From Dictyostelium discoideum (lineage: Eukaryota), in NCBI GenBank assembly GCA_000004695.1, contig CM000153.2, positions 1,760,001 through 1,824,000 of the forward strand: DNA of 64,000 bases. The letters run 5' to 3'. The notes beneath the pieces are model-generated. The model saw nothing but the letters and a program-made list of their open reading frames with translations, was not told the DNA's origin and made no database searches. Positions 708 through 43,625 of this stretch are shown here, one piece after another. The position numbers and the translations under genes were made by a program. Position 1 is the first letter of the stretch. Each line of letters opens with the position of its first letter.

Positions 708-4026
<3,319 letters not shown>

Positions 4027-5295
4027 ATAAAAAAAAAAAAAAAAAAAAAAAAAGAAAAAAACAAAAAAAAAAACAAAAAAAAAAAAAAAATCAACCCATC
4101 GTAAAAATATCAATTAATTACAATAATAGTATAAAATACTTAATGGCGATTATTTAATAAATAACAATTCACTATTTTTTAGAATTAAAAGTGATTTTTT
4201 CAACTTTTAATAAAAAATTAAAATGATTGGTGTGCAGGTTTATTACTTTTTTTTTTTTTTTTTGACGGTGTGTTTTGGATTTTTTTTTTTTTCTTTTTAA
4301 GTTTTGTTTATAAAAAATTGTAAGGTGAAAATATCAATTTCGTTAGGTTTTTTTTTTTTATAGATTTTTCATTGCGCCTTTTTTTTTTTTTTTTAAACTT
4401 TGCCAAATTACAAGATTTTATTTTTTTTTTTTTTTAAAATTTTAGGAAACCCATTAATTATTGAACTCAATGAAACAATCATGATTTTAATCACAAATCA
4501 CTTTAAAATAAAATTTAGATTGAATACCTAACCCCTCATAATTTCATTCATTAATTCATTTTTTTTTTTTTTTTTTTTTTTTGAGGAGCCCGCCTTTTTT
4601 TAAAATTTTTTTTTTTTTTTGGGAGGGAAATTAGCAGTGTTTCAGATCTAAATATTGTATTGTTGGGTTGTTTATAATAATTTTTTTTTTACATCCAATC
4701 AATTCTTTAACTTGAGATCTCGAATGTTTATAATAGTTGTGTTTTTTTTTTTTATTTTAATTTTGTTTTGTTTTTTTTTTATTTTTTTTTTTTTATTTTT
4801 ATTTTGTTTTTTTTTTTTTTTTTTATTAATAATAATAATAAAAATAATAATGGGAGTTAAAGCGTGCAAACACCAAGTAGGGGGGGGTTTAAATTTAATG
4901 TTTTGCTATGTTGTTTATGAATTAATATGTTATGAATATTAGGGGTGATTAAAAATGGTTATAATACAATAAAAAAAAAAAAAAAAATTATAAAAAAATT
5001 AAAAAAAATTAAATTATTAATTTACAACATAATAGTACCCTATATTTGGGCTGTTTGTTGATGTAATGATAGTTTATTTTTTCTTTTCTTTTAATTATTT
5101 TTAATTAATATTTTTTTTTTTTAAAAAATAATTTTTTTTTTTTTTAATTTTTTTTTTTTTAAAAAAATAACATTTATTTTTAAGTTTACTTTAAATTTGT
5201 TTTTTTTTTTTTTAAAAAAAATATTATAAATAATAATCATAATAATATAATAATGGGGTGATTTAATCAATCAAAATACTTATATACTCCTCTCC

Positions 5296-9794: not shown

Positions 9795-10739
9795 TTAAAT
9801 GAAGATATTGTAATGAATTTTCTGATTTCTATTTTTTTTTTTTTTTCAAAAATTTATTTTAATATTGTTATTTTTGATTGTTACAAATGTATTATTATAA
9901 AAATCATTAAAAATCATATTTATCCATAGATTATTTTTCATTATATTTTTAAAAAATGTACATACAAAAATTATATATATATATATTTTTTTTTTTTATT
10001 CCTATAAATATATATAATTTTAATTATTTTATATTTTTTTTATTTTTTATTCCAATCTAATATTGATTTTATGTTTTATTGTAATTGGTGGTAATTCCAA
10101 AGATATAATTAAAACTCGTATGTGATTTGAAATGAGATATATACTTGAAAATTATTTAAAATGATGGTTTTTTTATTTTTTTTTTTTTTTGATTAAAGGT
10201 ACCTTTTTCTATTTTTTTTTGTGGTTTTTTAAAGTTTGTGGTTGTGGTTTATACATGTTGATATAAGATGTATGTGTTAAATAATAAATCAACCCCCCAA
10301 TCTCACATTTTAACTATTATTTTTGTAAATATTATAATTTTATTTTGATTTTTTAAAATTAACACATACATAGATTAATATAAATGGTTAGTGAGCCAAA
10401 TTAATTTATTTTATAGTAATAATTTATAATGATAATTGCAAAAGGAAATAACATGTGTGTTCTATTTTATTGTATAAAAAAAATTAAAAATAAATTAAAT
10501 ATAATTGTAATGGTGTTATAGTGTAGTGGTGGTAGAAGTAATAGTCAATTACTATAAACCAATAAACACACACAAACTACCACTTATTTTTCACACCACA
10601 CTATTTAACTCACCACTAATACTTCAATTGGTGAATAAAAGGAACAACTACAAAAAAACAATAATAATAACAACCATAAAAAAAAAAAAAAAAAAAAAAA
10701 AATTAAATTGATAAACACCACCACACACTATACATATAT

Positions 10740-10740
<1 letters not shown>

Positions 10741-10808
<68 letters not shown>
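10741..10808. repeat. (TAA)n microsatellite, about 22 units
   Basis: Uninterrupted trinucleotide repeat, seen directly. Confidence 0.95.
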
Positions 10809-41421: not shown

Positions 41422-42328
41422 ATGTTTATTTGTATGTATTTATTTAAAATATAGTATTATTTTAAAATTGTTATTATTGTTGTTATTATTAATATTATTA
41501 TTATAAAATTAATTCTTTTTTTATTTTTCAAATATATGTAGAAATTATTACTATTTAAAATATTATTATTATTTTATTATTAGTTATTTATTATTTTATT
41601 ATTAGTTATTTATTATTTATTAATACTATGTGCGCTCTTACTACTCTCTCTCCTGTCTCACTCTTTATCGTTTTTCTATAACTGTGATCCCCTTTTGTGG
41701 TTTGCGATTTCACATATAAAAATTTAAAAAAAACTTTTTTTTTCAAAAAAAAAAATTTAAAAAAAAAAAAAAAAATAAAAAAAAATAAAAAAAATTTCAC
41801 AAAAAAAAAAAAATAAAAATAAAAATAAATAAATAAAAATAAAATAAATTAAAAAAAATTAAAATAAAATAATAAATTTAATTAAAATCACAGTGCTAAA
41901 ATAAAAACAATAAAGTGACGAATAGATTTGTCAAATAAAAATTTAATTTAATTAAAAATAATTTCCAAAAAAAAAAAAAAAAAAAAAATATTCAAGTGAT
42001 CGGTATTAAACAAGAAAAAAAAAAAAAATAAAAAAAAAATAATAATATTAAATTTAAATCTTGTTTTCTTTTAATTTTTTTTTTTTAGAAATCATAAAAA
42101 ATCCAATGTTTCTATTAATATTGAGATTGAAAATCATAATATATTCCAAGAGTGTCCAGTTTGTACCATTTGTTAAAGAGAATCAAATAGGAAAGTTTTT
42201 CATCTTCAGACAGTTCTTCATTGATCCAACAAATATTATGAATTTTTGATGTCATTATGTTCTATATGCGCATAATGGCATTTAAAGTTCTGAATAGTCA
42301 TATTTTCACATTTGATTAGAGACTGAAT

Positions 42329-42340
42329 GAGAATCGAACC
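42329..42340 (-). promoter_or_regulatory. External B box (exB), a downstream extra pol III B-box-like element typical of Dictyostelium tRNA genes
   Basis: The minus strand reads GGTTCGATTCTC, about 33 nt downstream of the tRNA 3' end. This matches the GGTTCGANTCC consensus. Dictyostelium tRNA genes commonly carry such an exB box (established knowledge). Confidence 0.5.
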
Positions 42341-42372
42341 TCCGACGATATATGGGTAGGCGAAAAAAATTT

Positions 42373-42445
42373 CGCCCAAAGGGGGGCTCGAACCCCCGAC
42401 CACAAGGTTAAAAGCCTTGCGCTCTACCGACTGAGCTATCTGGGC
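42373..42445 (-). tRNA. tRNA-Lys (anticodon UUU), 73 nt, no intron
   Basis: The minus strand reads GCCCAGATAGCTCAGTCGGTAGAGCGCAAGGCTTTTAACCTTGTGGTCGGGGGTTCGAGCCCCCCTTTGGGCG. It has a 7-bp acceptor stem with one G-U pair, D-loop AGCTCAGTCGGTAGAGC (A box), anticodon loop CTTTTAA (TTT) and T-loop GGTTCGAGCC (B box). An oligo-T terminator follows. Confidence 0.9.
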
Positions 42446-42478
42446 ATTTTTGAATTTTAAATTAAAAATAAACCCAAT

Positions 42479-42499
42479 AAAGAATAATTTTAACCAATT

Positions 42500-42533
<34 letters not shown>

Positions 42534-42581
42534 AAGAATAATTTTAAAAATTATAACAATAATAATAATAATAATAATAAT

Positions 42582-42614
<33 letters not shown>

Positions 42615-42627
42615 TAAGAATAACAAG

Positions 42628-42666
<39 letters not shown>

Positions 42667-43120
42667 AAACTCTCCTAGAACACACTCAAATTGAGTGATG
42701 TTATTAAAAAAAAAAAAAAAAGAATAATTTTAAACTACACTCTAACTTAGTGTGGACACACTTGGAATGTGGAGATTTTAAACCATCTACAAATTGCACT
42801 AATATCCAATTTAATAGCTATCATATTCGAAAAAATATGGCAAAAAAGAAACAAACTGATTCACGATGAAAAAGAAATAATAATTCATCATACGTGAACT
42901 AATTAAAACACAAAGAGCTGCATGGGACAGGACACAAGCGGTGATAAACAAAACATTAAGAATCAAATCAAAGCAACGACCAGAAGAATTAGACTCATTA
43001 ATCTCGCTAAAGCTATTACAATTTAGCAGACAATGGAACTCACCTCTTCACGCAATAGCACTTCCTAAACATCTCAAAAAATACAACAATTCACTCAGTA
43101 CTTTCTATAAATAAAAAAAA

Positions 43121-43171
<51 letters not shown>

Positions 43172-43625
43172 AAAAAAAAAAAAACCTGGGGACCCAAGTT
43201 AATCAGAAAATTTCCAGATTTATAACTTTTTAAAGTAAAATAAAAAAAATAGAAAGAAAACAAGTTGAAAATTACAAACAACACCACAAATATTAAGCAA
43301 CATAAATGCCTACATAAAATAAGCGAAATTGTGGATAAAACTCATATAAAAAAAAAACAATTCAAATATGTCATCAACATCAATCACGAACCAGACGATA
43401 AAATAAAAAAAGATTTAGAAAAATGTTTGGACAAAAAATATGTTTTAATCAAAAGTTATAATACAATTCAAAATTCGAAACAAAAAAAAAAAAAAAAAAA
43501 AAAAGTAAACTAACCCCTCTTTTAGAGACCCTGTAAAAAAACTAAAATAAAATGAGATCTAGCATCTCAAGGAGAAGCAACCAATAATTGCGTTATCCAA
43601 TTCAAAAAAAAAAGAATAATTTTAA
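42479..43625 (+). mobile_element. Cluster of 5'-truncated, poly(A)-terminated non-LTR retroelement fragments (TRE-type, tRNA-gene-targeted) flanked by four copies of the same 15-17-bp direct repeat
   Basis: (A)TAAAGAATAATTTTAA occurs at 42479-42493, 42533-42547, 42719-42733 and 43611-43625. Each interval between copies ends in an oligo(A) tract. The third interval (42736-43195) is a distinctly GC-richer, non-genomic-looking sequence ending in a roughly 80-nt A tract. The first copy lies about 35-50 bp upstream of the tRNA-Lys 5' end, which is the known TRE5 target distance. I did not verify the family (TRE5-A/B/C) by alignment. Confidence 0.5.

Follow-up and report, generated by a model that had tools for sequence, protein, structure and literature searches.

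The tRNA-Lys(UUU) gene and the repeat upstream of it

The window analysed here is a 64-kb stretch of Dictyostelium discoideum DNA with a G+C content of 22%, in which ARAGORN called a single tRNA gene, tRNA-Lys(UUU), on the minus strand at 42372-42446. Its position +1 (42446) serves as the pol III landmark. The gene contains two published primer sequences for D. discoideum Lys(UUU), CCAAAGGGGGGCTCGAACCC (PMC3159450) and CCGACCACAAGGTTAAAAGCCTTG (PMC5391098 supplement), both as exact matches. Table S2 of Spaller et al. 2017 (PMC5391098) lists 23 LysUUU genes; by position, the gene described here is possibly LysUUU-14 or LysUUU-15 (chromosome 4, both with modest read counts), an assignment for which the mapping is insecure.

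An exact-match search of the window with the 15-mer AAAGAATAATTTTAA returned four copies, at 42479, 42533, 42719 and 43611, all on the plus strand, all upstream of tRNA-Lys(UUU) and all at junctions between an element and its flank. The mean number expected by chance was 0.07 (dinucleotide shuffles), with a maximum of one copy in any shuffle. This search confirmed the four positions named in the first-pass annotation. The 17-mer given there as the repeat, ATAAAGAATAATTTTAA, was exact in copies 1 and 2 only; an A tail adjoins each of copies 3 and 4, which for this reason read AAAAAGAATAATTTTAA and have unassignable first bases, and the 15-mer is the part common to all four. Sub-words of the repeat of 10-13 nt occurred nowhere else within the 64 kb. 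The repeat is therefore not a common low-complexity motif, an objection that had been raised beforehand.

Copy 1 of the target-site duplication, the tRNA-proximal one, spans 42477-42493 on the plus strand as ATAAAGAATAATTTTAA, 31-47 nt upstream of tRNA +1. Its 15-mer lies 33-47 nt upstream, in line with the earlier estimate of about 35-50 bp. Copy 2 (42532-42547, plus strand) consists of a T followed by AAAGAATAATTTTAA, copy 3 occupies 42719-42733 (plus strand), and the distal copy 4 (43611-43625, plus strand) is followed by the native flank AAAGAAAATG. The three intervals bounded by these copies, here called units 1, 2 and 3 from the tRNA gene outward, end in runs of A31 (42501-42531), A16 (42706-42721) and A10 (43604-43613). 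The description of the region as a series of oligo(A)-ended units was correct for these three intervals, but not for 42736-43195 and 43196-43606, which had been listed as two such units and are not separately bounded; no repeat copy was present between them in the exact search of the 64-kb window.

The duplication that flanks unit 1 measures 16-18 nt, and those of the other two events 12-16 nt each. With the T at 42532, this putatively youngest duplication reaches further left than is demonstrable for the other two, and it slightly exceeds the 10-16 bp reported for TRE5 elements (PMC9012585). The differing extents argue for separate nicking events.

On the other side of the tRNA gene, a second B-box-like motif, GGTTCGATTCT, was observed on the minus strand at 42330-42340, approximately 30 nt beyond the T7 terminator (42363-42369). 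It looks like the external B box that has been described for Dictyostelium tRNA genes, a landmark available to TRE3 elements. Also downstream of tRNA-Lys, at 42087-42330, is a block of higher G+C content (28-38%), with a T run at 42075-42086 on the plus strand, so that the block, read on the tRNA strand, has an A12 at its end. Position and orientation of this block would suit a 5'-truncated TRE3. No target-site duplication was seen around it, it matched neither the TRE5 loci nor any of 126 ORF2-type proteins, and its sole match in a representative protein library was a spurious repeat protein.

Identity of the three bounded units

Reference copies for the distal unit were found indirectly, through an 81-codon open frame (43268-43510) that matched small D. 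discoideum proteins labelled "hypothetical". One of these proteins is encoded at a locus (L002) that contains a complete element with ORF1 (444 aa), ORF2 (1047 aa, with a reverse-transcriptase domain), B-modules and C-modules, and window positions 42735-43603 aligned with L002 7472-8347 colinearly and without rearrangement. The published structure of TRE5-A.1 is AB-ORF1/ORF2-BC, with a B-module of 290 bp duplicated from the 5' UTR and a C-module of 134-137 bp (PMC3159450). Unit 3 (42734-43613) comprises the last ~870 nt of one 5'-truncated TRE5-A.1 copy. On the plus strand, it starts with the 3' ~380-400 nt of ORF2 (42734-43114, colinear with L002 7472-7881), and continues with an internal A tract that links the ORF2 stop to the 3' B-module (43115-43184), a B-module of 292 nt (43185-43476, aligned with L002 7922-8212), a C-module of 127 nt that ends in CCAATTC (43477-43603, delimited by alignment to the reference copies) and an oligo(A) tail (43604-43610; the last three A of the A10 run may belong to the duplication).

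The ORF2 part of unit 3 carries three small deletions (9, 11 and 9 nt) and retains its stop codon TAA at 43112-43114. Translation of the ORF2 tail (48 aa) gave a match to the C-terminus of the ORF2 protein P0007, with the peptides NLIAIIFEKIW and IHDEKEIIIH in common. The B-module of unit 3 also aligned with the 5' B-module running into ORF1 (L002 3034-3323; L003 6212-6498); the TRE5-A copy at L003 has a deletion of ~70 nt in the BC region, as reported for TRE5-A.2. Mutagenesis of the TRE5-A.1 C-module has addressed T15, C26, A35 and C38, numbered from the 3' end and located in stems I and III (PMC3159450). With the final C of CCAATTC taken as position 1, all four bases were present in the C-module of unit 3, a combination satisfied at only 0.18% of the offsets in the window. 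Of the three stems in the predicted fold of this module (z-score -2.6), the first contains A35 and C38 and the third T15 and C26. Unit 3 differs from the reference copies by ~3.9% private substitutions.

The first-pass annotation had treated 42736-43195 as a unit of its own with an A tail of about 80 nt. The A run in question (43113-43184, 72 nt with two C interruptions) is instead the internal tract of TRE5-A; its counterpart in L002 measures ~40 nt, and an A run occupies the same ORF2/B-module junction in both copies at L002, in L003 and in L006. The stretches on its two sides belong to a single TRE5-A.1 copy. Given this internal tract, and with no repeat copy between the two stretches, three events are therefore counted at the locus and not four.

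The middle unit (unit 2, 42548-42718, plus strand) corresponds to ~165 nt from the 3' end of a TRE5-B-like element, with 92% identity over 172 columns to L006 10245-10416. It consists of an (AAT)n stretch, AAAAAAATAAGAATAACAAG, A32, a unique end of 46 nt with a hairpin, and the A tail. The terminal 46 unique nt are 100% identical to those of the L006 element, including the 6-bp hairpin (z-score -3.3), and unit 2 gave no match in TRE5-A. A search with the ORF2 of TRE5-A yielded four D. discoideum ORF2 groups, and loci were taken for three of them. P0020, the ORF2 protein of the L006 element, has 44% identity to TRE5-A ORF2 and falls into a cluster of 39 members. The 5' end of the element is placed head-to-head with a minus-strand tRNA-Ala(AGC) gene, 46 nt upstream of it. 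The element is without a C-module and shows no relation to that module at its 3' end, and BLASTP revealed no significant similarity of its ORF1 to TRE5-A ORF1.

For TRE5-B, the absence of a C-module and of a 3' B-module has been published, together with an ORF1 that is ~25% identical to that of TRE5-A (PMC3159450). The element at a further locus, L004, ends in a C-module-like sequence from which 3 nt are deleted (51 versus 54 nt), and is without a B-module, as published for TRE5-C (PMC3159450). By this published description, and by elimination among the three TRE5 families named in the literature (PMC5911963), unit 2 and the L006 element fit TRE5-B.

The proximal unit (unit 1, 42494-42531, plus strand) consists of CCAATTC followed by A31; these 7 nt equal the terminus of the TRE5-A C-module, and the A run would be the tail. 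CCAATTC also ends the C-module of unit 3 (43597-43603) and those in L002, L003 and L006. The match comprises 7 nt only, and CCAATTC equally terminates the L005 element of a related family; on this basis, unit 1 probably represents an extremely 5'-truncated insertion of the TRE5-A type. Self-BLAST detected no further copies of the units within the 64-kb window, and no verbatim match of the unit sequence strings was found in literature text.

Integration geometry and probable order of the insertions

The first inserted base (42494) is located 48 nt from tRNA +1. All three units read 5' to 3' on the plus strand with their A tails distal, i.e. head-to-head with the minus-strand tRNA-Lys gene, and 5' truncation has left 7, ~165 and ~870 nt of units 1, 2 and 3, respectively. 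The hallmarks of target-primed reverse transcription are present at the locus: 3' oligo(A), variable 5' truncation and flanking duplications of variable length. TRE5 elements integrate 47 ± 3 bp upstream of tRNA genes (PMC5391098), in an orientation opposite to the tRNA gene with the element 5' end facing the tRNA 5' end (PMC5911963), and generate target-site duplications of 10-16 bp (PMC9012585). Their targeting depends on TFIIIC/TFIIIB, and insertion proceeds via target-primed reverse transcription (PMC5391098, PMC9012585, PMC5911963). All three bounded units match TRE5 3' ends, and orientation, distance, tails and duplications fit as well, in agreement with the initial proposal of repeated TRE5-type target-primed insertions at one pol III-defined site. 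TRE3 and DGLT-A were ruled out as sources of units 1-3, which lie upstream of the tRNA gene at 48 nt, are A-tailed and lack LTRs; DGLT-A is an LTR element that inserts 13-33 bp upstream of tRNA genes (PMC5911963).

We consider it very probable that the locus comprises three independent 5'-truncated TRE5 insertions stacked upstream of one tRNA-Lys(UUU) gene in opposite orientation to it. Unit identities, geometry and repeats are read directly from the DNA; the order of the insertions and their mechanism we infer from published TRE5 biology. TFIIIB and TFIIIC on the tRNA gene would guide a TRE5 element to a site ~47 ± 3 bp upstream, where staggered nicks and target-primed reverse transcription would duplicate 10-16 bp of the target. 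A later element would nick the tRNA-proximal copy of the earlier duplication, duplicate it again and displace the older elements outward. The same repeat would recur because the integration site is measured from the tRNA gene. The first event would have been a TRE5-A.1 truncated within ORF2 (42734-43613), the second a TRE5-B-like element truncated in its 3' UTR (42548-42718), and the third a TRE5-A-type RNA of which only 7 nt plus poly(A) were copied (42494-42531). The empty site before these events can be reconstructed as AAACCCAATAAAGAATAATTTTAAAAAGAAAATG.

Stacking measured from the tRNA gene predicts that age rises with distance from it. In agreement with this order, the tails shorten outward from A31 via A16 to A10. 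Unit 3 has also diverged, by its three deletions and ~3.9% private substitutions, while unit 2 shows full identity to the reference over its unique end. An independent stack was found at the tRNA-Ala(AGC) gene of L006. Outward from this gene, (A)CAATATTAAT precedes the full-length TRE5-B-like element, which has a tail of A15. Then come CAATATTAAT, 15 nt of filler and a 5'-truncated TRE5-A (A13), and CAATATTA borders the native flank. The duplication CAATATTA(AT) occurs three times (4163-4173, 10421-10430 and 10773-10780), and the filler is located at the TRE5-A 5' junction. The inner duplication holds the AT that was created by the earlier, outer insertion, which directly supports the stacking order. 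Reuse of a shared duplication was seen in both stacks examined (tRNA-Lys and tRNA-Ala).

A 21.8-kb stretch around tRNA-Lys is 99.6% identical to chromosome CM142510.1 of a second D. discoideum assembly (GCA_054883475.1), which has the same array at this gene. Between 42000 and 43930, the sole differences are the lengths of three A runs, those at 42501, 42628 and 43122, which are 4, 7 and 19 nt shorter in the second assembly (L001); they represent either true length polymorphism or homopolymer assembly error. No empty or partly filled site was found in this one other assembly, in which the locus was identified via the neighbouring eIF2A-like gene and a 487-aa single-exon open reading frame.

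Four other explanations were weighed against three stacked insertions. The one that retains some weight, though it is improbable, concerns unit 1, which could be the residue of a longer TRE5-A after internal deletion or recombination. An insert of 7 nt is unusually short, and recombinant TRE5-A structures do exist, e.g. at L002, where an ORF2-B arrangement runs straight into ORF1. Such a deletion would, however, have had to start exactly at the junction between duplication and element, where no repeat is present that could have driven it, and the long pure A31 together with the intact duplication of 16-18 nt is what a young, aborted reverse transcription would be expected to leave. Four or more separate insertions, with 42736-43195 as a poly(A) fragment of its own beside 43196-43606, would explain why the 72-nt A run divides the two stretches and why the B-module starts directly after it. 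This is very unlikely; both stretches align without rearrangement to single TRE5-A.1 copies, an A run marks this junction also in L002 (twice), L003 and L006, and no duplication copy lies between the stretches.

The two remaining explanations dispense with retrotransposition as the source of the repeat. Local tandem duplication, unequal crossing-over or replication slippage might be thought of in a region that is AT-rich, has many A runs and contains an (AAT)n microsatellite, but these processes would give homologous units, whereas the three intervals are mutually unrelated and each corresponds to the 3' end of a different retrotransposon copy present elsewhere in the genome; we regard such an origin as hardly credible. 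Still less can be said for a chance low-complexity coincidence, the probability of which is close to nil: a window with 22% G+C does contain four additional loose matches to the 15-mer at ≤2 mismatches, but the four exact copies contrast with an expectation of 0.07, no shuffle reached two, and all four are placed at element/flank junctions.

Relation to known TRE insertions and to other TRE5 elements

The locus is an instance of an already known phenomenon and displays the ordinary, described behaviour of TRE5 elements. A TRE is carried by 61% of D. discoideum tRNA genes, and 91 of 98 tRNA genes occupied by TRE5-A were targeted again experimentally (PMC5391098). The term retroelement hotspot used in the first-pass annotation is overstated, as D. 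discoideum tRNA genes are generally TRE5 targets (61% with a TRE, as above). TRE-TRE tandems at occupied tRNA genes have been published (PMC5391098; Fig. 1D of PMC9012585). In these, a new TRE5-A copy is found ~46-50 bp upstream of the A/B-box motif or tRNA gene, between that landmark and the resident element, and tandems and not nested insertions result (PMC5391098, PMC9012585); Nanopore reads showed this for a new copy at a site where the resident was a TRE5-A.2, with the duplications drawn (PMC9012585). With these reports, and with the second example at tRNA-Ala, the statement that reuse of one target-site duplication is not commonly documented had to be abandoned.

Compared with TRE5-A (formerly DRE, a non-LTR element of the L1 type), the locus agrees in the upstream site at 48 nt, the opposite orientation, oligo(A), 5' truncation and duplications of 12-18 nt. 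Nothing differs in kind; the distal copy is degenerate (three deletions, ~4% private substitutions), and the proximal copy comprises 7 nt plus A31. The architecture is the same as that of the TRE-TRE tandems, but the published cases mostly involve two elements, one of them tagged, whereas three natural generations from two families, preserved as short remnants, are found here. The locus is mildly unusual only in its 7-nt stump and in that, within 1.15 kb, two families have left three generations of insertions. In yeast, clusters of Ty3 and Ty1 with solo LTRs upstream of tRNA genes likewise reflect a recurrent site defined by pol III factors. Such clusters also accumulate remnants of several events at one tRNA gene, but Ty3 and Ty1 are LTR elements that use an integrase, generate 5-bp duplications and have neither poly(A) nor target-primed reverse transcription.

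Knowledge of TRE5 targeting is unchanged by this locus, which is a clean natural example of position-specific retrotransposons recording their own history: with the tRNA gene fixing the integration point, each further insertion would copy the one target sequence again and push its predecessors outward, so that the succession of events can be recovered from the DNA. In annotation work, a long A run inside TRE5-A should not be taken for an insertion boundary, very short stumps such as 7 nt plus poly(A) should be counted as real insertion events, and the lengths of A runs at such loci should be expected to be polymorphic between assemblies.

The comparison of reference loci gave several further observations on TRE5 elements. 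Besides the group at 44% identity, two D. discoideum ORF2 groups (P0013-P0017; L004, L005) were found at 53-62% identity to TRE5-A, and the full-length representatives L004 and L005 (D. cf. discoideum) both end in C-module-like sequence. Only three TRE5 families are named in the literature (PMC5911963), and one of the groups at 53-62% identity may accordingly be a subfamily or an undescribed TRE5 relative.

At L002 (1-8347), an ORF2 copy ending at 2996 is followed by an A run and by a B-module that leads straight into ORF1 (3113-4447), ORF2, B and C. Two TRE5-A copies are apparently joined here via the B-module, with no C-module, tail or duplication between them. This arrangement points to a recombination event that involved one 3' and one 5' B-module.

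An A run directly follows the ORF2 stop in TRE5-A (~40 nt, L002 7882-7921), in the TRE5-C-like element (55 nt, L004 9243-9297) and in the TRE5-B-like element (22 nt, L006 9436-9457). Beyond it lie B and C in TRE5-A, C in the TRE5-C-like element and a UTR of ~950 nt in the TRE5-B-like element. The A run might be a fossil poly(A) tail, with the 3' modules captured from a downstream neighbour via read-through transcription or template switching across stacks; we regard this as unlikely on balance. If true, it would make tRNA-gene stacks the birthplace of composite TRE5 variants. In the 3' UTR of the TRE5-B-like element (L006 9470-10240), where ARAGORN made no tRNA call, tandem tacctttaaaat-type repeats were observed together with tRNA-like pieces that include the B-box-like motif GGATTCGATCCCCC.
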